DNA of 32,000 nt from Candidatus Hadarchaeota archaeon (GCA_964514965.1 CAZETV010000001.1:330001-362000), one strand, 5' to 3'; counted from the stretch's first letter, positions 15,552 through 32,000 are shown. Translations and numbers: made by a program. Notes: generated by a model from the letters alone, not told the origin.

Positions 15552-15582
15552 GTTAAATGACCTCGCTGGCTTTCCTAAAAAT

Positions 15583-16459: not shown

Positions 16460-16465
16460 AAGTGG

Positions 16466-16540: not shown

Positions 16541-16547
16541 GTTAGTT

Positions 16548-16655
16548 CAGTGCTAGTAGAACAGGGGCATATAACTCGATTTTTTCGGTCGCTTCGCCAC
16601 GAGGGCTGAGGCTATCTTGACGGCCGCGCTCGGCTTCTCGCAACGATGAGGGTTA
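16548..16655 (-). pseudogene. Decayed fragment of the topA 5' coding region (copy of about 13366-13470)
   Basis: The core 16601-16642 matches 13415-13456 at 40 of 42 nt, in the same orientation. Weaker similarity extends on both sides with 1-nt indels. The minus-strand translation gives CEKPSAAVKIASALVAKRPKK, against TopA residues 18-38 CEKPSAAIKIASALAEKRPEK. Confidence 0.75.
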
Positions 16656-16706
16656 GTGGTGGATAGTCGAGTGGGCTTTTAGTAAAATGAGGGGGAGAAT
16701 CTTGGA

Positions 16707-17048
16707 TTGGAATTCAAAAAAGGAGATAATTCAATAGCTAGCAGAAAAGAAATATTAGATACTGTGGAGGTTGCTCTCAGAGAACTGACGAATGAATTCA
16801 TCCGAAATCCAATGCGTTTCTTCTCCGAAAAAGACTTCCATTGGTATTTCTGTTATCTATTAAACACGAACGAGCTAGTCAAAACCCGGTTTGATGGTTA
16901 CAAGACAATGATTTGCACCAAGAACCTGCCGAAGCATATCAAAAATGATTGCGATACGTTGAAGTCGAGTGGCGCGAGGAACAGGTATATTGCCATTTAC
17001 TACCGAGATCAAACTGGGAGAGTGGAAAAGTTTCGTCGCGTAAGGTAA
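16707..17048 (+). CDS. Hypothetical protein (113 aa), first gene of the McrBC-like module
   Basis: TTG start lies 9 nt after GGGGGAG (16691-16697), and the next ORF follows after 23 nt. I recognise no family. ATG at codon 36 is an alternative start. Confidence 0.4.
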   Translation: MEFKKGDNSIASRKEILDTVEVALRELTNEFIRNPMRFFSEKDFHWYFCYLLNTNELVKTRFDGYKTMICTKNLPKHIKNDCDTLKSSGARNRYIAIYYRDQTGRVEKFRRVR

Positions 17049-17071
17049 TCGCGCGAATCAATGCATAGGGG

Positions 17072-18298
17072 ATGATGTGGTTGGCACAGCGTAAATTTGG
17101 AGGATTCAAATCAATCGTGTTCAGGTCCTGTGATGGGACAAAGAAGGGGGCTCATCGGATATGTTTAGCGCTCAAGAACTTGAAGGTAGATATTGAGCTA
17201 AAAATCACCGCTAAAATTGATAAAAACCTCGTCGGAAAAGTTTCTAATTCATGGAGTCAGGGAAAATACTACCGGGATGCCGCTTGGCTCATGTTTACGA
17301 ATCGAAAAGTTGGCGCGTATAAACATCCTCAACTAACGGTGAACCTGTTTGAGGACGAAGTCTGGATTGGTTTTAGATCCCATGGGGATGATGAGTACGC
17401 TTTCCGATATCCATTTAAAATAGGAGACTATGCTAGAAAACACCCTAAACGTTTTAGAAAGTTGGTAAGCAGCCTTTCCAAAGTGGAGTGGGGATTTGAC
17501 TCCGACGAAAGAACAAATAATTTTACTACTCCTCGGCGCTTTACATCAAGAGAGTTAGAGATAAGACTTCGACAAAAATTCGAATGGATCAACACTAGAT
17601 TCGATAAAAGAGACCCGCTTGCGAAAAATAGCCGAATTGCAGATGAGATAGTAGATATCTTCAGCAGGCTCTATCCCCTCTATGCGATCACCGTGGGCAA
17701 GAGTTTTCAAATTGAAAGGCTTCTACCCGAAAAACAACTAGAGACCGTTGAAATTGTTGACCTCAGCCGTTCCCGCAAAGAAGTTTTGGAAAAAGCTAAA
17801 AAAGTATTCAAAAAGGGCGGCAAAGGCATAGATTTATCAGGCATCTATGCACCCTCTAGGAAAATAAGAGTTCCAATTCGAGAATCCAGAAAAATTGTAA
17901 TTAGATACTATGCCGCACTTTTAGACAAACTCAACCTTAGGCCGGTAGAAATCGGTGGCGAAACTTTACTTGTTGCGCCTGGCATGAGGATACCTCCGGT
18001 TAGAAAAATAAAGAGGTTTAAAGCGTTTTTAAGAAAAATTATAAGGATCATGGGTGGAAATCCAGAAACAGTTAAAATCATGGTTAAGGAACCCACTTCT
18101 GACGCAAGAATCATAGACAAACAGATCGTGTTTAATGCTACCCTGATAAACCATTCGCCCATATTTTGGATGATAATAGCGGCACGAGAGCTAGCATCGC
18201 TTAGATACAAGGAGCATTACCAGCATGTCAAGGCAATGAGCATCCTACTTGAAAGAGCTATAAAACATTTAGACGAAATTGATACCCGCTTTAGCTAA
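17072..18298 (+). CDS. Hypothetical protein (408 aa) with a C-terminal DUF45/YgjP-like region lacking the HExxH histidines
   Basis: Long ORF with island-typical composition. Residues 325-382 align without gaps to the motif region of the DUF45 peptidase at 22224-22976 (..FN..LI.........E...L.K.H), but read ARELASLRYKEH where the peptidase reads CHEVLHLKEKRH. I recognise nothing in the N-terminal half. Confidence 0.6.
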   Translation: MMWLAQRKFGGFKSIVFRSCDGTKKGAHRICLALKNLKVDIELKITAKIDKNLVGKVSNSWSQGKYYRDAAWLMFTNRKVGAYKHPQLTVNLFEDEVWIGFRSHGDDEYAFRYPFKIGDYARKHPKRFRKLVSSLSKVEWGFDSDERTNNFTTPRRFTSRELEIRLRQKFEWINTRFDKRDPLAKNSRIADEIVDIFSRLYPLYAITVGKSFQIERLLPEKQLETVEIVDLSRSRKEVLEKAKKVFKKGGKGIDLSGIYAPSRKIRVPIRESRKIVIRYYAALLDKLNLRPVEIGGETLLVAPGMRIPPVRKIKRFKAFLRKIIRIMGGNPETVKIMVKEPTSDARIIDKQIVFNATLINHSPIFWMIIAARELASLRYKEHYQHVKAMSILLERAIKHLDEIDTRFS

Positions 18299-18399
18299 GA
18301 GGAATCTAATAGTTTCTCCAAAGCGCCTGTGGATCAAGGTAAGATAAGAATTGAAGTGATTTAAAGGTATAAGGTTAAAATTATCCCAACGTTGTATAG

Positions 18400-20562
18400 A
18401 TGTGGTGCAGGATGATGGAAAAGCAAACGCTCGTAAGGCGTAGGGGAGATTTTGAAGAAAAGTTTGATGATTCTAAACTAGGCGTATCGGAAGAAAAATG
18501 GAAGAAATTTTTGGAAAAGTACCCGAGAGATAAGCTCAGCGAATTGGAGATTGACGATTATGTGGAAGGTAAAAGAAAAGAGAGTTTCTGTTGGTGGCTT
18601 GAACATGGGACTAGAAAACTCGGAAGCATGTGGGGTGGGTCAGCGGAAAAGTTTGGGATATATTACAAAAAAGAGCAGGGTAGATACTGGTTTGACAAGT
18701 CAAGGTTTAGGGACGAGAAAGAAGCGTTTTCTAAAGTGAAGGAAGATATCCTAAAATTATTGGACTTCGCTGAGAGGGGAGAATTTGAGAAGGTAGATAG
18801 AGAAATAAATACGATTTGGCCAGTAATGAAGTCAAAAATTATTTCAATGTACTTTCCAGGTAAGATTGTTAATGTACACTCGAGACGAAACATCAAAAAA
18901 ATATCGAATAGATTAGGAGTCGAGTACACCGGACCGATTAAGACAAGCGCAGAGATATTAACTGAGTTGAAAAACAGCGGAGTATTCGATGATTGGAAAG
19001 AAAAATTAACTGCATTTCAATTTGATCAAAAACTAGGCAATTTCGTTTGGAAGAAAGTTCTTAACGAAAATGAACCTGTGGAAGAAAGAAAACCGCCTAA
19101 GGTATGGCTTGAAAAAACATTGGTTTCAGGTAGACCTGATAGAGAATCTGGCCCTTATGCTTTAGGAGAAGCATTATGGTCTCCTCAAACGGATAAACGA
19201 GGTGCCGATATTTATGGAAATATGCGAAAATTGAGCATAGGTGACCAGGTTCTACACCTAGTAGATAATGATCAGATCATTGGGATTTCTAAAGTAAAAT
19301 CCGACCTAATTACTGATTTTCATTGCTTGCCCAGAACCGAGTGGGACGATGGAACTGGAAAGCGGCCGGGATACCTTCGTGAACTAGAGGACTTCAAACG
19401 ATTTGATAACCCTATTCATACATACTCCCAAATTTTAAAAAATGACAAATACAAAGAACTGCTAAAAAATCTATTGAACGGAGGGCACGATCTCTTTTAT
19501 ACAAGCGACCTTAAATTGAGGGAAGGAGCCTATCTAACGGAAGTTCCAGGGGAATTAATGCGAATATTGAGTGAAGAATCTGAGAAACCCACAATTGCGA
19601 TCCAACCTCTGGACCTTCAGCCGACTCTCATTAAAACAAAACTCAAGCTTACTCCAGATGTTCTAGGTCAAGTCTGTGCGAGTTTGAATGCGAGCAGCCA
19701 CGTAATTATAACCGGTCCAGTTGGAACTGGCAAGACCTCATTAGCTGAGGACATATGTCGAGCTGCAACAGAGAACAAGTTCTGCTATGGGTATGTCCTT
19801 ACAACCGCGACATCCGACTGGACCACGTTTGACACGATTGGTGGTTACATGCCGATAGAGGAAGGCAAGTTGAAATTTGAAGAAGGAAAGTTTCTCGATG
19901 CCATTCGAAGGAATAAATGGTTGGTTATAGATGAAATTAACAGGGCCGACATTGACAAGGCCTTCGGACAGTTATTCACAGTTCTCTCTGGACAAAGAGT
20001 TGAATTGCCTTTTAAACATTTCAATGGAAAAGGCATTTCTATTGAAACAACAAACGAGGAAAAAAGCTACTTTGAAGAAATTGCAACTTACAAAGTCGGT
20101 AGAAACTGGAGGATAATTGCCACGATGAACGTTTACGATATGAATTTCTTATTTGAGATGTCATACGCATTCATGAGAAGATTCGCCTTTGTCTACCTAA
20201 ATGTCCCAGAACCCGAGGAGTTTAGAAATTTAATTTCCGAATGGTGCAAGGGAAAGGGGATTTCGGACAAGACCACGGAAAAACTGGAGAAGCTGACAGA
20301 GTTCAAGGAGAGAAAAATTGGTCCCGCGATAATCAAGGATATGATAAACTATATCAAGCATAGAGGGGAGGGAGAAACTCAACTTGCAGAAGCTACCATT
20401 GCATATATTTTGCCCCAACTTGAGGGCATAGAAAAAGAAAGAATTGAAAATGCTTGGAAATACATCGGTAATATTTTTGATGAAAAGGACACCCCGAATA
20501 AGGTAATAAGACCTATATTAAATGAGATGACTGGCCTTGAACTAAAGGAAATTACTGAATAA
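18400..20562 (+). CDS. McrB-family AAA+ (AAA_5) NTPase with long uncharacterised N-terminal extension
   Basis: Walker A GPVGTGKTS (nt 19714-19740), Walker B with the McrB signature WLVIDEINRADIDKAFGQLFTVLSG, IIATMNVYDMN (compare E. coli McrB MNTADRS), and FMRRFAFV. About 415 aa precede the ATPase core. The start may be ATG 18412 or 18415. Confidence 0.85.
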   Translation: MWCRMMEKQTLVRRRGDFEEKFDDSKLGVSEEKWKKFLEKYPRDKLSELEIDDYVEGKRKESFCWWLEHGTRKLGSMWGGSAEKFGIYYKKEQGRYWFDKSRFRDEKEAFSKVKEDILKLLDFAERGEFEKVDREINTIWPVMKSKIISMYFPGKIVNVHSRRNIKKISNRLGVEYTGPIKTSAEILTELKNSGVFDDWKEKLTAFQFDQKLGNFVWKKVLNENEPVEERKPPKVWLEKTLVSGRPDRESGPYALGEALWSPQTDKRGADIYGNMRKLSIGDQVLHLVDNDQIIGISKVKSDLITDFHCLPRTEWDDGTGKRPGYLRELEDFKRFDNPIHTYSQILKNDKYKELLKNLLNGGHDLFYTSDLKLREGAYLTEVPGELMRILSEESEKPTIAIQPLDLQPTLIKTKLKLTPDVLGQVCASLNASSHVIITGPVGTGKTSLAEDICRAATENKFCYGYVLTTATSDWTTFDTIGGYMPIEEGKLKFEEGKFLDAIRRNKWLVIDEINRADIDKAFGQLFTVLSGQRVELPFKHFNGKGISIETTNEEKSYFEEIATYKVGRNWRIIATMNVYDMNFLFEMSYAFMRRFAFVYLNVPEPEEFRNLISEWCKGKGISDKTTEKLEKLTEFKERKIGPAIIKDMINYIKHRGEGETQLAEATIAYILPQLEGIEKERIENAWKYIGNIFDEKDTPNKVIRPILNEMTGLELKEITE

Positions 20563-20575
20563 AAAAGGGATAACG

Positions 20576-21835
20576 ATGGTTAGCGATTGCTGGTCAGATG
20601 AAGATTATCAACATGTTTTGGGTCAGGTAAAACACTATCTTTGGTTATACGTTCATGAAGGTGCAAGTATTGAAGAACTTGAAAATGCTGTTCAAAACCT
20701 GACGAGGCTCGATGGAAAAGATTTGGACTATCTGTCTGTCGTGCACTTTCTTTTGAGCGACGAAGTCAAAATACTCATTGAGGCCATTTCAAGAATTCTC
20801 CGGAGGCTTTCACACTCGACGCAGACGGAAGTCGTTGCGAACAAGGGTTTTGTAAAAGGGAGGATAGATTGGAATCTAACGATAAAGGAGAGGTACGCTC
20901 AAGGATACAACCCAACTATTTTTGTGTGCAGGCCTCCTTCAAGGGTATACGATCTTCCTGAGAATCAGTTACTAAAATTTCTCCTTGTACATATGAAAAG
21001 GATGATAGAACAGACTGCGTCGCTTCAAAAAATAGAGGAAAAAGACATCAGATTAGAAGAGCTTAAAACAGAAGAAAGGGAAAAATGGACGGAAAGAGTA
21101 TCATGGCTTAAATTTCACATCAATAATGCACTAAAACATGTTTACCTGAGAGAGGTCAAGTTACCGGATCAAGTAAATGAACGGATGATAAGAAGGGCTA
21201 GATTGTCAAGAAACAAAGATTATGAAAATATTGTGAACAGTTATTCTTTACACCGGAAAATAGTTCAGAAATCAGATGCAAAAGCATTGAGAGAGCTCAT
21301 AGAAAGGAGGGTCCTAGAGCCCCTGGAAAAAGATACTTTGTATGAGTTGTATGTTCTATTTGAAGTCATGGACTCGCTGGGCAAACCTGAGGAGCTTAAT
21401 CTAGTAAGACCTGGAGCGAAATCGATAGGATCTTTTAAAATCAATGGGGCGACCATCCGGGTTCACTTTCAACGAGTTAGAGGATTATTCAAAGTGAGTA
21501 AGTACAAACAAATCTTCGATGATTATGAGTTGGATGTCAGTTCAAGACGTCCCGATATCATCCTTCAATTTGAGAAGGAACCTAAATTCATGATAATTGA
21601 AGTTAAACGGACGACAAATAGGGACTACATTGTGGATAGTGTTTACAAAGTTTTAGGGTATCTGGCTGATTTCGAAAAGTTTTTTACTCTAAAACAGAAG
21701 CCCAAAGGCGTGTTGGTCGTTTGGAATATTGAGCGAAAGAGAAAGACAGAGCAAGATGTATCTATTTTGGCTCATAATAAGATCGCAGGATTTATCAAAG
21801 AAACTGTCGATATGCGTGGAAGCACTTTTAGATGA
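20576..21835 (+). CDS. McrC-like PD-(D/E)xK nuclease subunit
   Basis: Starts 13 nt after the McrB-like gene. McrC-like elements are LPENQLLKFLL and LYELYVLFEVM. The C-terminal nuclease motif is RRPDIILQF...FMIIEVKRT (D327, E342, K344). Confidence 0.7.
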   Translation: MVSDCWSDEDYQHVLGQVKHYLWLYVHEGASIEELENAVQNLTRLDGKDLDYLSVVHFLLSDEVKILIEAISRILRRLSHSTQTEVVANKGFVKGRIDWNLTIKERYAQGYNPTIFVCRPPSRVYDLPENQLLKFLLVHMKRMIEQTASLQKIEEKDIRLEELKTEEREKWTERVSWLKFHINNALKHVYLREVKLPDQVNERMIRRARLSRNKDYENIVNSYSLHRKIVQKSDAKALRELIERRVLEPLEKDTLYELYVLFEVMDSLGKPEELNLVRPGAKSIGSFKINGATIRVHFQRVRGLFKVSKYKQIFDDYELDVSSRRPDIILQFEKEPKFMIIEVKRTTNRDYIVDSVYKVLGYLADFEKFFTLKQKPKGVLVVWNIERKRKTEQDVSILAHNKIAGFIKETVDMRGSTFR

Positions 21836-21947
21836 AGAATGATCCCTGATTGCTTAGGAAATAGCTGGGATTTACCTTGAGCGGGAGATCCTTGTTAGAT
21901 ATCGTAGCCTAGGATTTAGGGGTAGAAAAGACAAAGGTGAGAAATAT

Positions 21948-22142
21948 ATGCCTAGGTGCTCGGTCTGCGGGCGGGAGTTTCCGGAGAGCCAGCTGCGCCG
22001 CTGCTACGATTGTGGCAAGGCATACTGCCCTGAGTGCGCCGAGAAGAACCCTACGATAAAGGAACTTGACATCTGCCCGGACTACAAGGAGATCTTCGAG
22101 GCCGAGGAGGACTACTGGGGTTGGGAAGAAGAAGAGTGGTAG
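21948..22142 (+). CDS. Small zinc-ribbon protein with acidic Trp-rich C-terminal tail
   Basis: 64 aa. ATG lies 8 nt after GGTGA. It has three Cys pairs (CSVC, CYDC, CPEC) and the tail EAEEDYWGWEEEEW. It is strongly GC-rich (41/60 at 21961-22020) against low-GC neighbours. Confidence 0.6.
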   Translation: MPRCSVCGREFPESQLRRCYDCGKAYCPECAEKNPTIKELDICPDYKEIFEAEEDYWGWEEEEW

Positions 22143-22223
22143 AGCTATACTTTTTCTTTACTCAGCCATCTAAAACGCCTTGACACAAAGTTGGAAAATC
22201 TAAATCTAACGAAAAATGTCAAA

Positions 22224-22976
22224 CTAGCCTATAAAATCGGCCAGAAACGTTGAACGGGGATACTCTTGAACAAAGAACCAGTATTCGAACAAACTGCTCT
22301 CCAATTGTTTGTAATTCTCAAATTCGCGCCCCATCTCCTCCCAAAAAGCTTTATCGTGACGCTTTTCCTTCAGGTGCAAAACTTCGTGACAAACCACGTA
22401 CCTAACGAGTTCCCTCGGCAGACAAATCAGCCAGAAGTTAAAGCTCAAATTTCCCTTGGACGAGCAGCTGGCCCATTTGGTTTTTTGTCTCTTTATGAAT
22501 ATTCTGTTGAACTCCACGCCAAATTTTTTGCTGTACTCCTCGGCCGCTGGCACAAGCTCACGAAGGAGTTTTTTCTTCAAGATGTTAACGAGCCGCCTGA
22601 GGTGATCCTGATCCCTTAAGTTGCATTCAATCCGCTTTTCATCAAAATCGATCTTTAGCGATCCATTTTCATGAACCTCAAAAAAATCCCCAAAAATGAA
22701 TAAACCTCTGCCGTTTTTCTTTTGATTTTTAATCTTCTCTATTGCTTTTTGGATTTCCTCATGTTTCTTGGATATCCAGTTCATCTTTCTCTCAAACAAG
22801 GGAGTTTCGTCTTTCCAGCTCTTCGGAAGGATTGCCATCAGTTCTCCAGTTTTAAATTCCAACCTAGGGTATCTTACATCTCTTCGCTCGACCTTGTATG
22901 GTAAGTCCGTCCCGTTCACTTGAATGGACTTACTAGAACCCTTTGAGACCCTTGATGATTTTTTCATATACCTCAT
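22224..22976 (-). CDS. DUF45/YgjP-type (M48-like) zinc metallopeptidase
   Basis: KWASCSSKGNLSFNFWLICLPRELVRYVVCHEVLHLKEKRHDKAFWEEM matches the family signature (WGSC ... fN..L...P....dYVvvHEl.HL.e.nHs..FW). The ORF overlaps the hsdR 3' end by 44 nt, or 35 nt if it starts at ATG 22967. Confidence 0.85.
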   Translation of the reverse strand: MRYMKKSSRVSKGSSKSIQVNGTDLPYKVERRDVRYPRLEFKTGELMAILPKSWKDETPLFERKMNWISKKHEEIQKAIEKIKNQKKNGRGLFIFGDFFEVHENGSLKIDFDEKRIECNLRDQDHLRRLVNILKKKLLRELVPAAEEYSKKFGVEFNRIFIKRQKTKWASCSSKGNLSFNFWLICLPRELVRYVVCHEVLHLKEKRHDKAFWEEMGREFENYKQLESSLFEYWFFVQEYPRSTFLADFIG

Positions 22977-25950
22977 TCCTCTCCTTTAGCGGCAACTTCT
23001 TCCTGAGGAATTTCCTGATCTCTCTGCCGACCTCCTTCAAAATTGTGGGTTTTTTGTTCCATCCCTTAAACAACTTTTCTGACTTTTCCAAACGCCCCCA
23101 TAGGGATTTTACTTCTCCAATCAGCTTTTCGGACTTCCCCATTTTTTCCTCCAATGCCACTAACAAGAAATATTCCGGCTCTGAGAGCTTCAACTCCTTC
23201 TGTCTTTTTTCCAGGTCCTGTGTCTCATGGACTATCTCAGACAACCGCTCGTATGCCTCTTTAACATCTATCTTCTTCTCCTTCCATTTCCTCACTATTC
23301 GCTCCACTTTCCTCGCTATCGGCTCATAGAGCAATTTCTGGGACCTATCGACCAAAACGTACTTGTTAAGCGCGAAGACCATGTCGTAGACTCTGTCGGT
23401 CATGCTCGAGTGAACTTTCCCAAGTTTGTCCAAATATTCATCATCCAGTTTCAGAACTGGAAACTCTTCTTTCATCTTTACATCCAATGTTTTATGAATG
23501 GTCTCAACGGTGCGGTTGAAATATTTCTTGAAGTATTCTTTAACTTTCTCCAGCTCTTCTCGATCCGGTCTAACGATCCACTTATCGCGGGAGTTATAGA
23601 CGGCCGTCAACCACTTGAATCTCTCGATGTCTCTTGATTCCAGATAGCGTGGACCAAGGAACTCGTAAATTCTCCGTAGCCTATCGTATTCCAAAAGGAA
23701 TTCCTTCTCAGCCTTGTCGTCGTGAAACAACATTTTAATTGCCGACTTCAGGGTTTCTCTATCGGTTCTCGTTCTATCCAGCCCTTTAAACAATTCCTCT
23801 GTTTCTTCTAACCGTTCCTTAAATTCCCTCACCTTTTCCTTCAAATCCACTGCGACGTACCTGATGTCTTGCTTCTGATAAATTGCCAACGCCTTTTCGA
23901 ATTCCTTGAGAATACCAATGTAGTCTATTATAAGCCCGGACTCTTTCACCCCCATGAAAGGCCTGTTGGTTCTAGCTATGGCTTGTAGCAGCCTGTGCTC
24001 TTTGAGGGGCTTATCGAGATACATCACTTCCAATATGGGTGCGTCAAAACCCGTAAGCAACATGTCTGTGACGATGAGAATTTTTGGATATTCCTCTTCT
24101 TTGAATTTCCTGATTATCTCTCTTCGAATCTCATCGATTTGCTTGTCCTGGTACCTTCCCCTTAGCTCTCGGTAGTAACGCATGATGAGTTCTGGATCGG
24201 TGTGCGGGTCGAATGTCATCACGACCTCCGTGTACTCGGGAGGTAGCAATCGGTCGAGCTTTTCCTTGTAGGTGATGCACGCTTCCCTGCACGCTGCCAC
24301 CACCATGCCCTTGAATTTCCCGTTGAGGTTCTCCTTAAAGTGGTTCGCGATATCTTCGGCTATGGTCTCTATCCTCCTCGGATTTTTGAGGAAGACCACT
24401 ACGTCGTTCAGCCTCCTGCTGATCCTCCGTTCAACTCTTTTCTGAAAATCTTCGGGTATTTCCTCCAGTTCTTGGGCGAGGAAATTTTCGAGCCGCTTTT
24501 TATTTAAACCTACTTTCTTCTCCATCCTCGTCTGGACGACTATGGGAAGAGTGAATCCATCCCTTATGGAATCCTCGATGAAGTATTTATGGAGGTAGAG
24601 TTCCTTCTGGCTGGGATAGCTGAAGGTGAGATAGGTATCCCTCTTCTTTTTCGTGAGAGGGGTTCCGGTGAAAGCAAAAAAGAACGCATTTATCAAAACA
24701 TCCCTCATTTGCTCGGCAAGTTTTCCGTACTGGGTCCTGTGTCCTTCGTCTATTATTGCGACCACGTTTTTCCTATTGGAAATTACTTCTTCCGATTCTT
24801 TTTCCAGTCCTAACGTCGAGAGGTCTTCTCTGAACTTATGTACAAGCGTGATGAAAATCCCCCTCTTCCCCCGGCACTCGTCATGGGTCAAAACTTCCTT
24901 CAGGTTTTTCACCGAGGAGATAACTTCGGGTTTGGCTATTCCTAGATCCAGATAAGAAAATTCGTCCCTCAGCTGCTCCTCCAGCTCATCCCGATCTACT
25001 ATGAGAAATATAGTTGGGTTCTCGAGTTTTGGGTGTCTGTAGAGCTTGTAAGTCGCGAAAATCATGGCGAGGGTTTTCCCAGACCCCTGCCAGTGCCAGA
25101 CCAGACCAGAATTCTTTTCTTCTTTTCCCTCCAAATTGCCTATCACCCGGTTGTAGATACGGTTTGCAGCATCGTACTGCATAAATCTGGGTAGGACCTT
25201 GGTAGACTTTCCGCGTTCCTCTCTCGCGAAAGTAAAGTTCACCAGTAGATCTGTTAGAGTGGATTTAGAGAGCATCTCAAGGGTCGCGTCCAGCTCATCC
25301 TCGAAGCCTTCCTCCCTCCAAAGATAAGTCTCCACATCTTTCAGGCCCAAGACATTCGGAAAATATCTGGCGGTTGCCTCGGCTGCGATGCTGAACTGCA
25401 CATACTTAAACAGTTCTGGAACGATATTTTCGTAATAATTTTTGATCTGTTTGTATGCTGTTTCCCAGCTGGCGCTAGGTTCGGTGGGGTTTTTGCACTC
25501 TATGGTCACGAGGGGTATCCCGTTGACGTAGAGAACTATATCTGGCCTTATCCTCCCGCGGGAACTCTCGAACCACACTTGGTTGCTGACCACGAACTCG
25601 TTGTTATCAGGATTTTTGCGATCGAGCAAGTCGATGTATTTCAGCTCTCTCGTGCGCTCCAACTTTATAGCTATGCCCTGTTTCAAAGACCTCAGGATAT
25701 GCTTGGACCCCTCAAAACTAGCCGGCTTGCTCTTGAGCTCGGCTAGAATCCGGTTCACGTCGCTTTCCGACAGCCCCAGATCCTCGTTTATCATTCTTAT
25801 GGCTCGAATAAAATCGTTAATGAGCAGGGGTTCAGCGTAATCTTCTCGCTCAAGCTCTTCCCCAGGGATGTATTTCCAACCCTTCCCCTTCAGCTTCTCG
25901 ATAATGTAATCCTCAACCGTGGATTTTTCTGTAAAAACTGGCATCCTCAT
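22933..25950 (-). CDS. hsdR: Type I restriction enzyme, R subunit
   Basis: N-terminal PD-(D/E)xK (IRPDIVLYVNGIPLVTIECK), helicase motif I WQGSGKT, motif II IIDEGHRTQYG, motif VI-like QAIARTNR, and a long helical C-terminal domain. 1005 aa. Confidence 0.95.
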   Translation of the reverse strand: MRMPVFTEKSTVEDYIIEKLKGKGWKYIPGEELEREDYAEPLLINDFIRAIRMINEDLGLSESDVNRILAELKSKPASFEGSKHILRSLKQGIAIKLERTRELKYIDLLDRKNPDNNEFVVSNQVWFESSRGRIRPDIVLYVNGIPLVTIECKNPTEPSASWETAYKQIKNYYENIVPELFKYVQFSIAAEATARYFPNVLGLKDVETYLWREEGFEDELDATLEMLSKSTLTDLLVNFTFAREERGKSTKVLPRFMQYDAANRIYNRVIGNLEGKEEKNSGLVWHWQGSGKTLAMIFATYKLYRHPKLENPTIFLIVDRDELEEQLRDEFSYLDLGIAKPEVISSVKNLKEVLTHDECRGKRGIFITLVHKFREDLSTLGLEKESEEVISNRKNVVAIIDEGHRTQYGKLAEQMRDVLINAFFFAFTGTPLTKKKRDTYLTFSYPSQKELYLHKYFIEDSIRDGFTLPIVVQTRMEKKVGLNKKRLENFLAQELEEIPEDFQKRVERRISRRLNDVVVFLKNPRRIETIAEDIANHFKENLNGKFKGMVVAACREACITYKEKLDRLLPPEYTEVVMTFDPHTDPELIMRYYRELRGRYQDKQIDEIRREIIRKFKEEEYPKILIVTDMLLTGFDAPILEVMYLDKPLKEHRLLQAIARTNRPFMGVKESGLIIDYIGILKEFEKALAIYQKQDIRYVAVDLKEKVREFKERLEETEELFKGLDRTRTDRETLKSAIKMLFHDDKAEKEFLLEYDRLRRIYEFLGPRYLESRDIERFKWLTAVYNSRDKWIVRPDREELEKVKEYFKKYFNRTVETIHKTLDVKMKEEFPVLKLDDEYLDKLGKVHSSMTDRVYDMVFALNKYVLVDRSQKLLYEPIARKVERIVRKWKEKKIDVKEAYERLSEIVHETQDLEKRQKELKLSEPEYFLLVALEEKMGKSEKLIGEVKSLWGRLEKSEKLFKGWNKKPTILKEVGREIRKFLRKKLPLKERNEVYEKIIKGLKGF

Positions 25951-25962
25951 CCTCCAGTTAGT

Positions 25963-26817
25963 TCACCCAAAACTCGGTTTTTCTGAAACATTTTTAGAAA
26001 ACAACTTGGACATTCTTTCCAAAACTCCTTTTGTTATCTGAGTCAGACGATCAAATTTTTTTATTATTGGATGTTCAACCGTGTAGACCATTAGCGGATT
26101 GTGTTCATACTCCGGATATGGATATCTTGAGGAAATCGCATGTGGACATGATATCAGGGATAAAAAGAGTAGATGGGTACTGCAAATTGCTTGAGGAATG
26201 CTAAAGGACACTATAAGCTCTTCTATTAATTCTGGAGTTAATGATTCAAACTTTTTCATTTCCCCCTTGATATTCTCGCGCAACTCTGGATGTTCCTCAG
26301 CAAGAGTATTTGCCACTTCTTGATAAAGAAATTTTAAGTTCTCTATTTCATTTTTATCAATCGTTATTTTTTGGCTTTCGATTTCTGCTTCTAAATTAAT
26401 TAATTCTGAGATCATCTTCTCTATTTCTTCATCGGAAATTTTGCGGTCAGAACGTTTAAGATAAGATTCGAATTTATCTAACATTTCGTCAAATTTTTCT
26501 GAACCTATATTCTCATATTCTTTGAATAGTGTGGTATGTTTCAATTTCGGAAGTTTTTTGATTCGTTCTTGAAACCTTTTAACTTTATTTTTTAGCCCTT
26601 CTACAACCTTGAGGTAAATTTCTAACGAATCATGACCAATTTCTTCTAAATCATCCTCACTAATTATGTTCTGATGTAACCCAAAAGATTTTGCGGCTTT
26701 CTCTACGGCTTGTTCTAAATAAAAAACCGCTTGTGGGTACAACTTTTTTTCAAATAAACACTTTGAGGCGTTTAGGTCACGTTCCGCAATGTCTAGAAGT
26801 ACACTTTTCGTGTTCAT
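25963..26817 (-). CDS. HEPN-like domain protein with a large coiled-coil insertion
   Basis: The N-terminus LDIAERDLNASKCLFEKKLYPQAVFYLEQAVEKAAKSFGL matches the first two HEPN helices (A..DL..A..l....y..a.f...QavEKalKa). A HEPN-like ISSRYPYPEYEH segment lies near residue 230. The two are separated by about 150 aa of charged heptad-like sequence. The start overlaps the hsdS stop by 4 nt. Confidence 0.5.
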   Translation of the reverse strand: MNTKSVLLDIAERDLNASKCLFEKKLYPQAVFYLEQAVEKAAKSFGLHQNIISEDDLEEIGHDSLEIYLKVVEGLKNKVKRFQERIKKLPKLKHTTLFKEYENIGSEKFDEMLDKFESYLKRSDRKISDEEIEKMISELINLEAEIESQKITIDKNEIENLKFLYQEVANTLAEEHPELRENIKGEMKKFESLTPELIEELIVSFSIPQAICSTHLLFLSLISCPHAISSRYPYPEYEHNPLMVYTVEHPIIKKFDRLTQITKGVLERMSKLFSKNVSEKPSFG

Positions 26818-28052
26818 AATTTTACTCTCCTCTTCCCGGTTAACAAATCGTTCATCAGTCCTTTCTTGAGCCTCTCGAGTTTTTCCTTCCTCTTTCTTTC
26901 GAGTTCGAGCTTTTTGTCAACGGTTGAGAGAATTTCGGCGATTTTTTGTTGCTCCAGAATTGGCGGGAGAGGGACTCGGTAGTTCTCGATTTCTTGTCTT
27001 CTTATCGCTTTGAAAGTTGAACCAGCTGATAAAGCTTCGAACTTCTTGCCATTGAACTTCAAGTAGTAGAACAAGAATAAATGATGAATCTTACTTTGCT
27101 TGACCCTAATAGTAGAAACACCTCTTCCAATACAACATTCAAATGGAGCAATATTAACGTCTCCAACTGGGGCCCTTACTGAAAGTAAAATGTCGTTAGA
27201 CTCAGCTGTCTTGACGGGATTAGAACAGTAAATCGTCGGTGAGGGGTAAATTTCCCCAAATTCCATTTTTCCTTGTAGGAACGGTAAACCTTCCCCTCTT
27301 TTATTATAAGTAGAGGAAGGAGGAGACTGCCCCATTATTAACTCGGCAATGTTTTTATCTCCAAGCCCAACAACATTCCACTCTCTAGGGATCTCGCAAC
27401 CCAGCTCCTTGTTGAACTTGAACTCCTTGTGCCCTATGCCCTTCGTAAGCAGCTCCTGCATCAGGCCCCGCTTCAGCCGCTCGGTTCGGGCTATGGCCTC
27501 GTCGACACGCTGGATCGCTTGGTAGACGGTGGAGAGGATCTCGGCGATGCGGCGCTGTTCGGGGAGGGGTGGGCGGGGAACTGAGTAGTTCTCAATCTCT
27601 TGTTTTCTTATCGCTTTGAAAGTCGAACCAGCTGATAAAGCTTCAAACTTCTTGCCATTAAGCTTCAGGTAATAGAATAAGAATAAATGATTGAATTTAT
27701 CCTGTTTGGCTCTGATCGCTGATAAACCTCTGCCAATACAACATCTAAATGGAGCAATATTAACCTCCCCAACAGGCGCCCTTACGGAAAGTAAAATGTC
27801 ATTGGGCTCAGCGATCTTAATGGGATTTGAACAATAAATTGTTGGGGAGGGATAAATTTCTCCAAATTCTAGTTTTCCCTGAAGAAAAGGTAGGCCTTCT
27901 CCTTTCTCGTTATAAGTTGAAGATGGAGGCGATTGCCCTATTATTAGCTCCACAACATTCTGGTCCCTTAATCTCACAACCCCCCACTCCTTTGGGATTT
28001 TGCTGATTGGAGTTTGTTTATGGTGGTTAGCTGTCTGCATCATTTTAACCAA
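26814..28052 (-). CDS. hsdS: Type I restriction enzyme, S (specificity) subunit with two near-identical TRDs
   Basis: Two TRD units (aa 19-176 and 221-378) are each followed by the conserved P.LPEQ..IAEILS helix. C-terminal coiled-coil LERLKKGLMNDLLTG is present. 412 aa. Confidence 0.9.
   Translation of the reverse strand: MVKMMQTANHHKQTPISKIPKEWGVVRLRDQNVVELIIGQSPPSSTYNEKGEGLPFLQGKLEFGEIYPSPTIYCSNPIKIAEPNDILLSVRAPVGEVNIAPFRCCIGRGLSAIRAKQDKFNHLFLFYYLKLNGKKFEALSAGSTFKAIRKQEIENYSVPRPPLPEQRRIAEILSTVYQAIQRVDEAIARTERLKRGLMQELLTKGIGHKEFKFNKELGCEIPREWNVVGLGDKNIAELIMGQSPPSSTYNKRGEGLPFLQGKMEFGEIYPSPTIYCSNPVKTAESNDILLSVRAPVGDVNIAPFECCIGRGVSTIRVKQSKIHHLFLFYYLKFNGKKFEALSAGSTFKAIRRQEIENYRVPLPPILEQQKIAEILSTVDKKLELERKRKEKLERLKKGLMNDLLTGKRRVKL
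26919..27392 (-). repeat. hsdS internal direct repeat, copy B (C-terminal TRD)
   Basis: Encodes aa 221-378. Hand alignment to aa 19-176 gives 128/158 identical residues. The DNA is also visibly similar over most of the length, with an offset of 606 nt. Confidence 0.85.
27525..27998 (-). repeat. hsdS internal direct repeat, copy A (N-terminal TRD)
   Basis: Encodes aa 19-176 and is the partner of 26919-27392. Confidence 0.85.
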
Positions 28053-28707
28053 ACCTCAGTTCCATTCGGCAGGAGGGGCAGGTGAAACTTCTGAATCTTG
28101 AGTATAAATTGAAAGTTATGCCACACTTTGGGCATTTCGTTTTAATTGAGTCAACACTAGCGGCTTCCTTTAGCGCCATGAGTATGCCACCTATGACTAA
28201 TCCTGTAAACCCACCAACCAACGCTCCACCAATTCTGTCTTTTGATGATAACAATCCACCCAAAACAGCACCGCCTGCTGTGAGCCCCATGCGAAGGTTG
28301 TTATTCTCAATAGCCTGTTTCATTTTTTGTAGAATTTTCTGGATATTTTGCCAATCTTCAATTTTTGTAGGCTCATACAAAATGTAATCCGTCAAATACG
28401 GAACAGGAAAATGGACTCTGTTATTGATATCTTCCACCACGAAAAGGGGTTTATTTGATCTTCTTGTCAGGCCCACTTCAAAAGCAACCCAATTTTGTGT
28501 GAAGTCCGAAGATTTCAGATTCTCCGTTAAAAATAGAAAAACCGCATCAGATGTTGCAATATTTTTTTCTATTTTCTTAAAGGGCGGCTCACTTTCCGGC
28601 GTAAATTCCATAAAAAGCGGCGAGATACCCGCAGATTTAAAATTAAGATCCGTTATTCTGATTAAGTCTTCGTCCTTTTTGCTGTGTGAGATAAACACTT
28701 GAACCAT
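28045..28707 (-). CDS. TIR-like domain protein with glycine-zipper hydrophobic segment and C-terminal zinc ribbon
   Basis: aa 1-110, VFISHSKKDEDL...SDAVFLFLTENLKSSDFTQNWVAFEVGL...KPLFVV, follows the TIR_2/TIR-like pattern (vFISys..D ... vlvllS..s..S.Wv..EiG). aa 140-179 form a Gly-zipper, GLTAGGAVLGGLL....IGGALVGGFTGLVIGGILMAL. aa 191-213 read CPKCG...CPSC. GGAG lies 9 nt upstream. The stop overlaps the hsdS start by 8 nt. Confidence 0.55.
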   Translation of the reverse strand: MVQVFISHSKKDEDLIRITDLNFKSAGISPLFMEFTPESEPPFKKIEKNIATSDAVFLFLTENLKSSDFTQNWVAFEVGLTRRSNKPLFVVEDINNRVHFPVPYLTDYILYEPTKIEDWQNIQKILQKMKQAIENNNLRMGLTAGGAVLGGLLSSKDRIGGALVGGFTGLVIGGILMALKEAASVDSIKTKCPKCGITFNLYSRFRSFTCPSCRMELRFG

Positions 28708-28956
28708 CTAATTATCTCCAATATTTATTAGGTTCGCCGCTCGACAGTAGGTTCTCGCATTATGGTCATGGGTGGCATCTAATGGCGACAACCGATCAAC
28801 GTGTAAACCAGGCCCGCGGTGGCAAGAGTGGTGGTAGTAGCAGTATTTAAAGGAGAAATGGTGTAAGTAATTATTGGCGGGTAAGTCCAAGTTGGTAACG
28901 TGTACCGGATGGTGCACTTCATGTCCGGCTTGGGTCCGCCGCTTGTTCACTGCCAA
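28708..28956 (-). CDS. Doubtful His/Cys-rich small ORF (82 aa) filling the DUF3800-TIR spacer
   Basis: TTG start only, inside the last codons of the DUF3800 gene; the stop abuts the TIR-like ATG. It has 12 His in 82 aa. Composition is GC-richer than the neighbours. No family is recognised, so this may be non-coding. Confidence 0.2.
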   Translation of the reverse strand: MAVNKRRTQAGHEVHHPVHVTNLDLPANNYLHHFSFKYCYYHHSCHRGPGLHVDRLSPLDATHDHNARTYCRAANLINIGDN

Positions 28957-29615
28957 AGAATCATTTCTCCCTTATTGACAATTTTATCCTCAATAATTTT
29001 GAAATACCTGTCATCACCGGAGTTGAACTTTCTGTTGATGCTCCAGACTACAAAATCGACCACCTGTAGCTCATTTTTAGAATAAGACGGAGCGTGATTA
29101 ATCTCGATGCTCCGGCTTTCAAGAAAAGTGGCCCTTTTTCTTTTTATGTAACTGTCAAAATCTGCGCGGAACAAAGTGTTGGTATGTTTCTTGTCCACTG
29201 TTATCACGAGCTTCCCGACCTTGACGTTCAACCGATCCATGAGCTTCCCACAGAGGTAGTTGTAAAGTTTATCCTTCACCTCATAGAGGTAATCAAATAT
29301 CTTGGACTTTTCGACGACTATCGCGTAAATATCGCAGTTGGCCACCCGGACTTGATTTAACACGTACTCCCGTATCATTCTGTTCGAGTTGTTGGCCTTG
29401 ATCTCTGGGAGCTGCCTGAGTTTCTTATTGAGCTTTCTCTCCCTCAGCCGCTTCATTATTCTAGAAAGATTTTTCGGATGGTCAACAAGGACCGCAGCAA
29501 CCACGAAATATTTTGAGCCGTATTTTCCCAAGTCGCCGCTTTCATCTATGTAAACACGTTTGGTCCAGTTCATCCGCATAACCCCGGAAAATAAAACCAG
29601 AGGTGGCCCCCACAA
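28947..29615 (-). CDS. DUF3800 family protein
   Basis: RVYIDESGDLGKYGSKYFVVAAVLV matches the DUF3800 N-terminal signature (iyiDESG....... yfvl..v.v). The likely true start is ATG 29579 or 29573; the track start at 29615 is a TTG 2 nt from the hsdM stop. Confidence 0.65.
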   Translation of the reverse strand: MWGPPLVLFSGVMRMNWTKRVYIDESGDLGKYGSKYFVVAAVLVDHPKNLSRIMKRLRERKLNKKLRQLPEIKANNSNRMIREYVLNQVRVANCDIYAIVVEKSKIFDYLYEVKDKLYNYLCGKLMDRLNVKVGKLVITVDKKHTNTLFRADFDSYIKRKRATFLESRSIEINHAPSYSKNELQVVDFVVWSINRKFNSGDDRYFKIIEDKIVNKGEMILWQ

Positions 29616-29616
29616 C

Positions 29617-31383
29617 TCATTTTTTCCCCTCGAGTTCTTTCAGATATCCATGTATTTTTTTCTCCACCTCGGCTATCTCGCCCTCCAAACTTCGCAGATC
29701 GTCCCACTCATTCGTAACATCTATTTCCTCTGCCTTCTCCTGCGGAAAAGCGTAGAGCGTGACGTTGAGGTTGTAATCGTTCCCCTTGATCTCATCCAAG
29801 GAAACGACCTTGACAAAGCCATCCGCGTCTTTAAAATTACGGTAAGCTCTCGTGACCTTCCTTATGTGGCCATCGCCAAGCCGGTTCAGCTTCCGGACCT
29901 CGGGGTGCTGCTCGTACTCTGAACTCGCATTTATGAAGAGAATTTTATTTTTCCTCTTAGTCGACTTGTGTTTGTTGAAAATCAAAATCGCTCCGGGAGC
30001 CCCGGTGTTATAAAAGAGTTTCTCGGGCAGGAGGATAACGCACTCGATCAGGTCATCTTTGAGAACCCCTTCTCTGATGCTCCTCTCCTTCCCCCCCCTG
30101 AACAAACAGCCATTGTCTATGACCACCCCAACCCTACCATTCCCTCCATCCGCGGAGCTGAGCATGTGCTGAATCCAAGCCCAATCAGCGGACTGATTTG
30201 GAGTAAATCCATAAGCATATCGCTGTTTCCAGAACTCTCCTTTCTTCAATACGTCTTCACCAAAGCCCTTTTGATTCCAAGGAGGATTTGCGATCACCAC
30301 ATTGAATTTCTTCAAAAAGTTGCCCTCCCTGAATTTTGGGTACAGTAAAGTATCCCCTAAGGCTAGGTTAACGTCCCTGATACCATGGATGTAAAGGTTC
30401 ATCTTACAAAGGCCGTATATTTCACGGTTGGCCTCTTGACCATAGATAAAAAGCTGCTTGGCCTTCTCCTTTCCGTATTTTTCTTTGACGTGGTTGTAAG
30501 AGAGTATCAGCATGCCGCCCGAGCCAAAAGCAGGATCGTAAACGGATTCTCTAGGCGTGGGGTCCAAAATCTCGACAAGTAGTTTTATTACCTCTCGGGG
30601 AGTGTAGACTTCCCCCTCCTTCGCCTTCTGCGGGGCGAAATATCGGAGAACCCACTCATATGCGTCGCCGAGTATGTCTGGGGAGACTCGGTGTAATTTT
30701 CTGGAGCTGAAAAGTTCAACAAGCTGCCTCAATATCTCAAAATTCTCGGTGCTCCTAGTGAACTGGATAAAGTCAGCTCTATCGATAACGTCTCTGAGTT
30801 CGGGGTTTCTCTCCGCCAAGACTTTTAAGCACTCCGCAAGCCTCGCGGGAAGCCTGTTGACATCCTTTCGTACGTTATCCCACAGAAATTCACTTGGTAA
30901 ATCGAAATCGTGGTAAACGCTACTCTTGGCCTCCTCTCTAGCCTCCTCTTCGCTCAAACCATCCTTGAGGGCTTCTCTATAGGCGATTTCAAATTCGACC
31001 TCCCATTTATCGCTGATCCGTTTCAGAAAAAGGAGGATGAGGATGAACTTGTAGTCTACTCTTGTTCTTATCAGGTCGGCCGCCTTTTTCAATAATCCCT
31101 CAAGGTCCTGCCTGGTTAATGCGCCGGCCCTCGCGATGCCCTCTATCAGAAACTCCTTCATGCTCCTCAGCGTGTAAACACTTTTTCTCGCATCCGAGGG
31201 GTCCGACCGTGCTTTGAGCCTTCCAGCTTTTCTGAGTTCCGAGAGGATTACGTTCACGTTCCTTTCGTTCTCCTTCAGCTTCTGCCTGAGCGCAGCGACG
31301 GCATCAGAGCGTGTAAAGGGTCGGTCTTGAAATACGTTCCATAAACCCAAATATCGCTCCTCAAGCCATTTGCTAAGTGTCAT
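29617..31383 (-). CDS. hsdM: Type I restriction enzyme, M subunit (N6-adenine DNA methyltransferase) with N-terminal winged-helix-like extension
   Basis: HsdM_N pattern LLKKAADLIRTRVDYKFILILLFLKRISD, AdoMet motif I DPAFGSGGMLI, and catalytic motif IV NPPWNQ. The first 85 aa or so resemble a wHTH (NVILSELRKAGRLKARSDPSDARKSVYTL). Confidence 0.95.
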   Translation of the reverse strand: MTLSKWLEERYLGLWNVFQDRPFTRSDAVAALRQKLKENERNVNVILSELRKAGRLKARSDPSDARKSVYTLRSMKEFLIEGIARAGALTRQDLEGLLKKAADLIRTRVDYKFILILLFLKRISDKWEVEFEIAYREALKDGLSEEEAREEAKSSVYHDFDLPSEFLWDNVRKDVNRLPARLAECLKVLAERNPELRDVIDRADFIQFTRSTENFEILRQLVELFSSRKLHRVSPDILGDAYEWVLRYFAPQKAKEGEVYTPREVIKLLVEILDPTPRESVYDPAFGSGGMLILSYNHVKEKYGKEKAKQLFIYGQEANREIYGLCKMNLYIHGIRDVNLALGDTLLYPKFREGNFLKKFNVVIANPPWNQKGFGEDVLKKGEFWKQRYAYGFTPNQSADWAWIQHMLSSADGGNGRVGVVIDNGCLFRGGKERSIREGVLKDDLIECVILLPEKLFYNTGAPGAILIFNKHKSTKRKNKILFINASSEYEQHPEVRKLNRLGDGHIRKVTRAYRNFKDADGFVKVVSLDEIKGNDYNLNVTLYAFPQEKAEEIDVTNEWDDLRSLEGEIAEVEKKIHGYLKELEGKK

Positions 31384-31405
31384 ACATCTCCAATTTTCCG
31401 GAAAC

Positions 31406-31418
31406 TTTAAATTATATA
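31406..31418 (-). promoter_or_regulatory. Candidate TATA box for the hsdM operon (minus strand TATATAATTTAAA)
   Basis: Located 23 nt upstream of the hsdM ATG (31383) on the minus strand, in the 76-nt gap after the radC-like gene. Motif only. Confidence 0.3.
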
Positions 31419-31459
31419 CGCTTTTTTGTTTTAGCTTACTAAATAAGCTTTATGATAAC

Positions 31460-31861
31460 CTAATGGATAATCCCGCGAGCCCTCAAGCTTGTGTAACCCT
31501 CGCCCCCAATTATCACATGATCCTGAATCCAAACACCTATCGTCTTGCCGATCCTGACTAGCTTTTTGGTGACTTCGATATCCGACTCGCTGGGCTCTGG
31601 ACTCCTACTTGGATGATTGTGGACGAGAATTATGGAAGCAGCAGAATTTTTGAGCGCACTCTCGAACACCTCCCGAGGGCGGAGCAGGGTTATGTCGGCG
31701 GCTCCACCTGATATTGTCTCACAATTTATCAGCCTGTTTTGGAGATCGAGGGAAATAAGCTTGATCACCTCGTGCTTGAGGACCCGGATCTCCTCTCTGA
31801 CCAACTCGAAGACATCTTCCGGCCTTGCAACATGAACCCGCTCGTTTTCAGCAGGCCTCAT
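31460..31861 (-). CDS. RadC-like JAB/MPN domain protein (short form)
   Basis: ILVHNHPSRSPEPSESDIEVTKKLVRIGKTIGVWIQDHVIIG matches the RadC signature (HNHPSG.pePS..D...T..L......lgi...DH.Iig). At 133 aa it lacks the N-terminal HhH part of full-length RadC. Confidence 0.85.
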   Translation of the reverse strand: MRPAENERVHVARPEDVFELVREEIRVLKHEVIKLISLDLQNRLINCETISGGAADITLLRPREVFESALKNSAASIILVHNHPSRSPEPSESDIEVTKKLVRIGKTIGVWIQDHVIIGGEGYTSLRARGIIH

Positions 31862-32000
31862 TATTCCCGCCGTGGCTTTGAGTGAAGGTTGTTTATATGG
31901 GGAAAATGTGGGGAGCCGATTTAACCAACATTATCTCAAAAATGATAACTTGGGTTAATCGAGTCAACTACCCCCATGAATGCTATTAGATTTCTTACCC

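Follow-up and report, generated by a model that had tools for sequence, protein, structure and literature searches.

The locus described here raises the question of what a small gene for a TIR-like protein is doing inside a Type I restriction-modification (R-M) operon of an archaeon. The gene is located on the minus strand at positions 28045..28707 of a 32,000-nucleotide (nt) stretch of DNA from Candidatus Hadarchaeota archaeon (GCA_964514965.1, CAZETV010000001.1:330001-362000), hereafter the window, and encodes a protein of 220 amino acids (aa) with its ATG at 28707 and its stop codon at 28045-28047. An original prediction, made from the sequence alone, had drawn the same frame, which the open reading frame (ORF) list and the sequence bear out, and had proposed a TIR or TIR-like N-terminus, a glycine-zipper hydrophobic segment and a C-terminal zinc ribbon, encoded between hsdM and hsdS. 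The answer favoured here is that the product is a self-contained, single-polypeptide TIR-class antiviral module, carried as a passenger and second defence layer in an archaeal Type I R-M operon; taken as one combined statement, this falls just short of an even proposition. Its components differ in strength: the protein is very probably a true TIR-fold enzyme acting on nicotinamide adenine dinucleotide (NAD+) or a related nucleotide, the gene is probably a defence gene, and depletion of NAD+ by this protein alone is a tentative candidate for the effector step, with somewhat less than an even chance.

The first 115 residues (28363..28707, minus strand) carry the core of this argument. Matches in Pfam, PADLOC and Foldseek and of the family profile to PDB sequences identify them as a TIR domain with an intact, invariant W-x3-E motif, and on every feature testable here the protein is assigned to the TIR superfamily. 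Pfam TIR_2 (PF13676) matches aa 4-88 with an E-value of 9.7e-7, scoring 29.7 bits against a gathering cut-off of 28, and among 35 aligned relatives 32 match TIR_2 at E<0.01 (best 2.8e-9) and 20 match CAP12/Pycsar TIR. The PADLOC ThsB models match the window protein weakly (E 2.6e-5) and its relatives down to 6.9e-10, and a weak match of the window protein to DUF4062 (E 0.004) is also found. The predicted elements of the domain are betaA (aa 2-7), alphaA (13-25), betaB (28-32), alphaB (43-52), betaC (55-60), alphaC (68-83), betaD (88-93) and betaE (107-111). An AlphaFold2 (AF2) model of the window protein built on 35 family sequences, with a predicted local distance difference test (pLDDT) score of 84 and a predicted template modelling (pTM) score of 0.78, folds aa 1-115 into five strands alternating with helices, an alpha/beta arrangement at pLDDT ~90. 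Its top Foldseek matches in the PDB are SpbK, SPARTA TIR-APAZ, Cat1, TIR-STING and the SARM1 TIR (E 9e-5 to 4e-4), all of them TIR domains of NAD+-consuming immune proteins that work by oligomerisation, and the family profile searched against PDB sequences returns SpbK (E 3.7e-4), AbTir and 7uxr.

The two motifs singled out in the original prediction are present as quoted, FISHSKKD at aa 5-12 and NWVAFEVG at aa 72-79, and the glutamate it had put forward as catalytic holds up well under comparison. W73 and E77 occur in all 87 distinct family sequences, and a HMMER alignment places the family N-W-x-x-x-E on NWTEYE of the solved bacterial TIR 7uxr; on this basis E77, whose codon lies at 28477..28479 on the minus strand, is the candidate catalytic residue of the W73-x3-E77 motif. 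The register also matches W638-x3-E642 of SARM1. S7, H8, S9 and D12 are found in each of the 85 sequences that have those positions, and the full set of invariant or nearly invariant residues adds F5, E34, T70, E92 (83/87), P103 and four cysteines. A non-TIR fold lacking a conserved glutamate, the outcome that would have spoken against the prediction, was returned by neither the profile nor the structure searches.

Downstream of the TIR domain, a polar or amphipathic stalk helix (aa 116-139; 28291..28362, minus strand) is modelled by AF2 as part of a single continuous helix of aa 116-153, which extends the last TIR helix toward a glycine-zipper hydrophobic hairpin (aa 140-179; 28171..28290, minus strand). 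The hairpin, delineated by motif count, hydropathy, the matches of relatives and the AF2 model, is laid out as a segment at aa 140-153, a charged SSKDR turn at 154-158 and a second segment at 159-179, with a perfect zipper G161-x3-G165-x3-G169-x3-G173 and further spaced pairs G141-x3-G145 and G146-x3-G150. AF2 predicts a helix-turn-helix with the return helix at 158-179, at low confidence (pLDDT 54-61), and the hydrophobicity of aa 161-179 (KD19 maximum 1.99, simple Hessa sum +0.74 kcal/mol) is borderline for membrane insertion. Matches of the window protein to glycine-zipper families are non-significant (E 0.07-0.9; PF05433 0.12, PF13441 0.92). Its relatives match Gly-zipper_YMGG (E 1.7e-6), Glycine zipper 2TM (E 2.6e-4), C19orf12 (E 2.6e-5) and DUF456, with 4 of the 35 matching PF05433, 4 matching PF13441 and 9 matching C19orf12. 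At least one repeated (G/A/S)xxxGxxxG motif lies past aa 115 in 27 of these 35 relatives, and eight of the aligned members are without a hydrophobic Gly-rich stretch. By a composite test requiring a 15-residue hydropathy above 1.7 and at least 7 glycines in 35 residues, the segment is found in 69 of the 87 distinct sequences and absent in 18, and several branches without it retain the TIR domain and the ribbon. The glycine-zipper stretch originally described therefore stands as regards the zipper motif and the family matches of relatives, with the qualification that the hairpin is not universal in the family. Insertion of the hairpin into the membrane is slightly favoured over the contrary and is the weakest link of the interpretation.

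The protein ends in a predicted zinc ribbon (aa 188-220; 28048..28146, minus strand), the CPKC...CPSC ending that had been noted from the sequence, with the form C192-P-K-C195, x14, C210-P-S-C213. These four cysteines are conserved in 81-85 of the 87 sequences, the strands at 188-191, 198-202, 207-209 and 216-218 are modelled by AF2 as paired beta-hairpins at pLDDT 90-97, and the segment has weak matches to many zinc-ribbon families.

The family is rare and mostly archaeal. Sixty full-length homologues are present in the protein collection, and genome and metagenome scans bring the total to the 87 distinct sequences; archaea form the majority of carriers among named genomes (Thermoplasmatota, Nitrosopumilaceae, Bathyarchaeia, Thermoprotei and Halobacteria), with a few bacterial carriers (Omnitrophota, Terriglobia, Dehalococcoidia and Pyrinomonadaceae). 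No relative was found in viral contigs, phage records or plasmid records, so a mobile-element or viral origin is unsupported. When the C-terminal 110 aa were searched against the whole library, the hairpin plus ribbon was found only joined to the TIR domain of this family, the remaining matches being to the ribbon alone or to fragments truncated at the N-terminus. A monophyletic sister clade at 30-44% identity, drawn from Nitrosopumilaceae, Bathyarchaeia, Dehalococcoidia and many metagenomic contigs, is without an R-M link and carries a gene of ~100 aa immediately downstream of the TIR gene in 34 loci (for example L005:8636-8941, L013:10651-10962 and L016:10651-10965, and 31 others; L numbers denote compared loci). 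This small partner has an SFGE motif and a weak DUF1499 match (Pfam E 0.005); a homologue search returned two proteins, a PADLOC search nothing meaningful, and an AF2 model on a shallow alignment a pLDDT of 44. It is absent from the window and from the window's clade. A different family of 216/217 aa, without a Pfam match and with copies 48% identical, adjoins or lies near the TIR gene in one Thermoplasmatota genome (L011:5358-6008), in a closely related metagenome contig (L033:653-1300) and in one Nitrosopumilaceae genome (L005:9864-10517), and is possibly a further associated gene.

The genomic position of the gene provides the second line of evidence. In the window it lies between hsdM, encoding the Type I methyltransferase subunit (29617..31383, minus strand; N6_Mtase E 2.9e-109 plus HsdM_N), and hsdS, encoding the specificity subunit (26814..28052, minus strand; Methylase_S E 3.9e-58, two repeats), whose start at 28052 overlaps the end of the TIR gene by 8 nt. 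The slot originally assigned is thus right, with the amendment that a DUF3800 gene (28947..29615, minus strand; Pfam DUF3800 E 7.9e-15, PADLOC candidate PDC-M04A E 4.8e-6) and a 239-nt spacer intervene after hsdM; since the DUF3800 gene also sits between hsdM and hsdS, the TIR gene is one of two inserts. Across the window's own clade, defined at 55% identity or more and comprising 11 distinct loci, the TIR gene is found between hsdM and hsdS on the operon strand in six (the window, L001/L002, L007/L008, L009/L010, L029 and L030). These six represent three Type I lineages, with HsdM proteins 27-34% identical and TIR proteins 59-66% identical, and the gene orders differ among lineages, L030 being arranged hsdR-hsdM-TIR-hsdS. 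The junctions are tight, with an ATGA overlap in L001 and an hsdM stop codon directly abutting the ATG in L009 and L029, and in L001 and L030 only hsdM, the TIR gene, hsdS and hsdR are present. The gene is therefore embedded, recurring on the same strand between the hsd genes of intact Type I systems, and is probably co-translated with the methyltransferase genes.

The other five loci of the clade are not embedded. L003 and L032 lie in other islands with a DUF5677-type gene nearby, together with an Eco57I-type enzyme (L003) or a Dam-like methylase (L032); L031 has the TIR gene among housekeeping genes; L011 and L033 complete the group. Embedded and non-embedded members are interleaved in a neighbour-joining tree, which indicates that the gene moves in and out of the slot and is not inherited with one operon. 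Apart from R-M genes or the ~100-aa partner, no neighbour family is common to all loci. Co-inserts in the slot of relatives encode proteins already recognised as defensive, an Old/GajA-like ATPase-TOPRIM protein (E 2e-46) and a SoFic-like Fic protein (E 2e-69), with Fic or Old/GajA/AriA-like genes directly after the TIR gene at L007:6864-7904, L009:5778-7256 and L029:8687-10177. The unrelated locus L038 also has an Old-like gene, 138 nt upstream of its TIR gene. That Type I R-M operons house defence genes is an established theme: most of what is embedded in Type I, BREX, DISARM and Hma systems belongs to defence, with 96.7% of the embedded genes in the orientation of the host system (bioRxiv 10.1101/2024.01.29.577857), and TgvAB is a tested Type I-embedded example (PMC11411939).

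In the mechanism proposed for a single-protein module, the TIR protein would be made constitutively along with the methyltransferase genes. The hairpin, inserted either re-entrantly or as a thin pair of helices, would anchor it to the cytoplasmic side of the membrane, leave both the TIR domain and the zinc ribbon in the cytoplasm and promote lateral self-association. The zinc ribbon, the stalk or the state of the R-M complex would report an infection cue, which would then drive the TIR domains into a head-to-tail assembly that completes their active sites, and the assembled domains would cleave NAD+ and arrest the infected cell in abortive infection; clustered glycine zippers may add membrane leakage. 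Several parts of this scheme have published counterparts, including single-protein TIR defences of E. coli that need their active-site residues (PMC11350192), the TIR-like NADase defence Swarozyc (bioRxiv 10.64898/2026.05.01.722283) and pairings of TIR and SLATT genes (PMC7159879, PMC9503650). The neighbourhoods of L001 and L030 indicate that no partner is obligate, and the company kept by the gene is consistent with defence, both in the island (McrBC-like genes, YgjP, RadC and a GC content lowered from 0.53 to ~0.42) and in the slot (Old/GajA-like, SoFic, PDC-M04A and HEPN).

A number of observations weigh against this reading. The TIR_2 score of the window protein exceeds the cut-off by only 1.7 bits, a small margin that is offset by the family and the structural model, which together remove reasonable doubt about the predicted TIR fold. 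The nearest PADLOC profiles are those of ThsB, which describe signal-producing TIRs and not NAD+-depleting effectors. Anchoring by the hairpin is called into question by its borderline hydrophobicity, its 14-residue first segment, its charged SSKDR turn and the low AF2 confidence there, and, as a minority of the family has no hairpin, the core function does not depend on it. The wider family for the most part has no link to R-M, and 34 of 87 loci carry the small partner gene instead, suggesting that the family may not be strictly single-gene. Finally, no virus-encoded trigger or sensor domain could be named. The rival explanations considered below each fit fewer observations.

Comparison with known single-protein systems helps to separate what is familiar in this protein from what is new. 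SpbK, an abortive-infection TIR of ICEBs1 (PDB 9phb, in which cryo-EM shows the TIR-domain protein as a filament), ranks first both in the structural comparison (Foldseek E 9e-5) and among the PDB matches of the family profile; it shares the FISHSxKD opening strand and is likewise a one-chain TIR defence whose non-TIR portion is small. However, its TIR domain is C-terminal, behind an N-terminal domain, it has neither a hydrophobic hairpin nor a zinc ribbon, and it is a bacterial protein on a mobile element that is not R-M embedded and is ~19% identical to the window protein. The E. coli single-gene TIR systems and Swarozyc (DUF4062) are also one-protein TIR or TIR-like defences that require an active-site glutamate, some with a transmembrane (TM) segment and several sensing the phage portal protein, but none is reported with a glycine zipper and zinc ribbon, from archaea or as a Type I-embedded gene. 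The configuration had been put forward as undescribed. In the literature searched, whose coverage is incomplete, no description was found of a TIR joined to a glycine zipper, of an archaeal TIR with a zinc ribbon or finger, of a glycine-zipper defence effector of this kind, or of a Type I-embedded TIR; this agrees with the claim, as absence of evidence only. PADLOC v2 has no dedicated model for the family. What is known, then, is the enzyme class and the genomic habit, and what is new is the architecture, the mainly archaeal distribution and the repeated capture at the hsdM-hsdS junction.

The rival that survives best, though unlikely, is signalling in the manner of ThsB, in which infection would lead the TIR domain to make an ADP-ribose-derived messenger that acts on a separate nearby effector or gates the protein's own hairpin in cis. 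The effectors would be the HEPN, DUF3800 or Old-like nuclease in the embedded clade and the ~100-aa partner in the sister clade, and the cis variant would gate the hairpin as has been proposed for SLATT two-TM (2TM) effectors. ThsB models are the best PADLOC matches of the window protein and its relatives, and the resemblance to Thoeris ThsB (types I-XI) extends to short TIR proteins with a conserved catalytic glutamate. A HEPN gene shares the operon in the window and in L008, and the partner is conserved directly downstream at the 34 sister-clade loci. However, no candidate effector is conserved across loci, with R-M genes alone surrounding the TIR gene in L001 and L030, and SIR2, SLOG, Macro, CARF and other known ligand-sensing domains were not found in the window operon. 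Thoeris, whose ThsB is soluble, needs a TIR gene plus a signal-activated effector gene; the window operon encodes only HsdM, DUF3800, HsdS, HEPN, HsdR and YgjP proteins and, lacking an effector gene, does not qualify as Thoeris.

The cis variant of signalling draws on a known theme, the pairs of a TIR gene with a 2TM SLATT gene (PMC7159879, PMC9503650; Thoeris type VII). In these pairs, predicted by the Aravind laboratory and represented by ThsH of Thoeris type VII, a TIR enzyme likewise accompanies a two-helix module predicted to breach the membrane, but in the window protein the two are fused, the chain running from TIR through hairpin to zinc ribbon. No SLATT family occurs among the Pfam matches of the window protein at E<=1, nor among the 25 families listed of the 26 matched by the 35 relatives, so that the protein is not a SLATT protein; the ~100-aa partner, for its part, is missing from the window's clade.

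As a further alternative, a shade less likely, the protein could serve the Type I enzyme itself as accessory subunit or guard. It would bind the M2S1 methyltransferase, which it might hold at the membrane at the entry site of foreign DNA, and would remain inactive until an anti-restriction factor of a virus upsets the complex, following the logic of PrrC and EcoprrI. Such a role is favoured by the placement of the gene precisely at the hsdM-hsdS junction in three divergent R-M lineages, with stop and start codons that overlap or abut, and by the location of L023 and L096 within 0.75 and 3.3 kb of an opposite-strand Type I operon. The sister clade's partner gene is lost exactly in the R-M-embedded clade, and PrrC itself is almost exclusively Type I-embedded (bioRxiv 10.1101/2024.01.29.577857). 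PrrC/EcoprrI and TgvAB resemble the present case in placing extra operon-strand defence genes between hsd genes as a layered defence, although neither is a TIR, PrrC combining an ABC-ATPase with an anticodon nuclease of HEPN type and TgvAB being a Type IV enzyme that resembles GmrSD. Against dependence on the host system, 5 of the 11 loci in the close clade and almost every member of the wider family adjoin no R-M system, the window's nearest relatives (L011 and L033) are among the non-embedded loci, and embedded genes tested to date are mostly independent of the system that hosts them (bioRxiv 10.1101/2024.01.29.577857).

It is also conceivable, if improbable, that the protein is a membrane-disrupting effector, the hairpins forming a pore or lesion while the TIR domain serves mainly as an oligomerisation switch with NAD+ chemistry secondary. 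The perfect GxxxGxxxGxxxG zipper is of a kind employed by pore-forming and membrane-translocating toxins, as in glycine-zipper effectors of the type VI and type VII secretion systems (T6SS, T7SS; PMC10240207, PMC10434224), relatives match membrane glycine-zipper families, and the hairpin and zinc ribbon occur as a module only when joined to the family's TIR domain. The Glycine zipper 2TM, YMGG and C19orf12 hairpins share the repeated GxxxG on two short hydrophobic helices with a tight turn, but belong mostly to stand-alone lipoproteins or to membrane proteins of organelles and are not fused to enzymes. The tryptophan and glutamate that are invariant in 87 of 87 sequences would be dispensable in a TIR acting only as a scaffold, part of the family has the TIR domain and ribbon without the hairpin, and the hydrophobicity is borderline for a full span.

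Quite improbable, too, is a more specific proposal: a membrane-anchored archaeal TIR guard assembled with the Type I methyltransferase core and firing when a virus puts the restriction complex out of action or diverts it with a decoy. Translational coupling to hsdM and hsdS would set the stoichiometry of such a guard, its output would be NAD+ destruction, membrane damage by the zipper or both, and the R-M complex would have replaced the small partner that controls the sister clade. A non-TIR activity, a Rossmann-like N-glycosidase or nucleoside 2-deoxyribosyltransferase-type enzyme acting on nucleotides such as modified viral ones, is highly improbable, since the weak Nuc_deoxyrib_tr matches in 4 of 35 relatives (E 0.0018), the additional Foldseek match to the cytidine monophosphate (CMP) N-glycosidase BcmB (E 7e-4) and the second near-invariant glutamate, E92, at the end of betaD are set against TIR profiles and structures that score better and more consistently and a W-x3-E on alphaC that is a TIR signature.

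The remaining features of the operon and its surroundings describe the setting of the single-protein module favoured above. The non-coding spacer 5' of the TIR gene (28708..28946, minus strand, 239 nt) has a guanine-cytosine (GC) content of 0.49 versus ~0.42 in its flanks and contains the TATA-like motifs TTTAAATA and AATAAATAT as well as GGAG; judged by these motifs, it may hold a putative promoter or Shine-Dalgarno (SD) sequence of the TIR gene's own. An Rfam scan gave no match for the spacer, and the Rfam and tRNA scans of the whole window were empty. A 41-nt stretch of the spacer is 83% identical to L008:8814-8854, and no such spacer is present in relatives, in which the TIR gene abuts hsdM. 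Two opposite-strand ORFs at 28082-28387 and 28424-28702 were rejected as shadows of the conserved minus-strand TIR gene. The DUF3800 gene on the far side of the spacer probably starts at the ATG at 29579 or 29573, not at the listed TTG. The target-recognition halves of HsdS share 71% protein identity over 198 aa and 80% DNA identity over 426 nt, a sign of recent duplication within the gene, from which a bipartite and symmetric recognition site is predicted.

Downstream of hsdS, and overlapping it by 4 nt, lies the HEPN-domain gene (25963..26817, minus strand; Pfam HEPN E 7.9e-10); one homologue occupies this position in L008, and another is close to the TIR gene in L022. The Pfam match of the window's HEPN protein covers aa 7-118 only, and an RYP-type motif, SSRYPYPEYEH, lies at aa 229-239, ~110 residues beyond, so that the HEPN domain is apparently split by a long helical insert. 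The restriction subunit gene hsdR (22933..25950, minus strand) is a 1005-aa ORF with 61-76% identity over ~1,000 aa to genes of L008, L009 and L010, whose products have HSDR_N, ResIII, SWI2_SNF2 and T1R_D3-like Pfam matches. The operon ends with a YgjP-like metallopeptidase gene (22224..22976, minus strand; Pfam YgjP-like E 6e-37) that overlaps the end of hsdR by 44 nt; since L008-L010 and Halorubrum L023 keep such a gene behind hsdR as well, operons of this Type I lineage seem to end in it as a rule.

The operon belongs to a lower-GC defence island. A RadC-like JAB gene (31460-31861, minus strand) lies just upstream of hsdM and may belong to the same island module; in L029 the corresponding gene (5022-5429) is ~0.8 kb upstream of hsdM with two small ORFs between. 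Downstream of the operon is a McrBC-like pair on the plus strand (18400-21835), encoding proteins of 720 aa and 419 aa. The 720-aa protein matches PD-T4-1 in its N-terminal region (E 2e-40), followed by an AAA_5 (McrB-type) ATPase, and this N-terminal region is related to a NOV_C protein adjoining the TIR gene in L003; the 419-aa partner weakly matches DUF2357 and VRR-NUC. Archaeal housekeeping proteins (RadA, RPA, RFC, NOG1, IleRS and HMG-CoA reductase) are encoded in the left half of the window and mark the host as an archaeon; GC content steps down from ~0.53 in this half (1-16000) to 0.36-0.48 in the island (16000-32000), suggesting horizontal acquisition.

TIR enzymes are an immune currency shared by bacteria, plants and animals. 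To our knowledge, almost all that is known of prokaryotic TIR proteins comes from bacteria and from soluble proteins. The present family is minimal, at 220 aa, and its membrane hairpin would be a direct extension of the last TIR helix, recalling receptor-linked TIRs in reverse order. Its repeated capture at the same junction in unrelated Type I systems offers a natural test of whether embedded genes are merely co-expressed with the system around them or functionally coupled to it, and were the guard assembled with the methyltransferase core to prove true, the protein would parallel PrrC/EcoprrI among TIR proteins and would be the first TIR immune switch tethered to a membrane to be described in archaea. 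As PADLOC v2 holds no model specific to the family, a confirmed activity would add a compact defence gene to the catalogues, and would provide a small, tractable system for the triggering of TIR assembly at the membrane.

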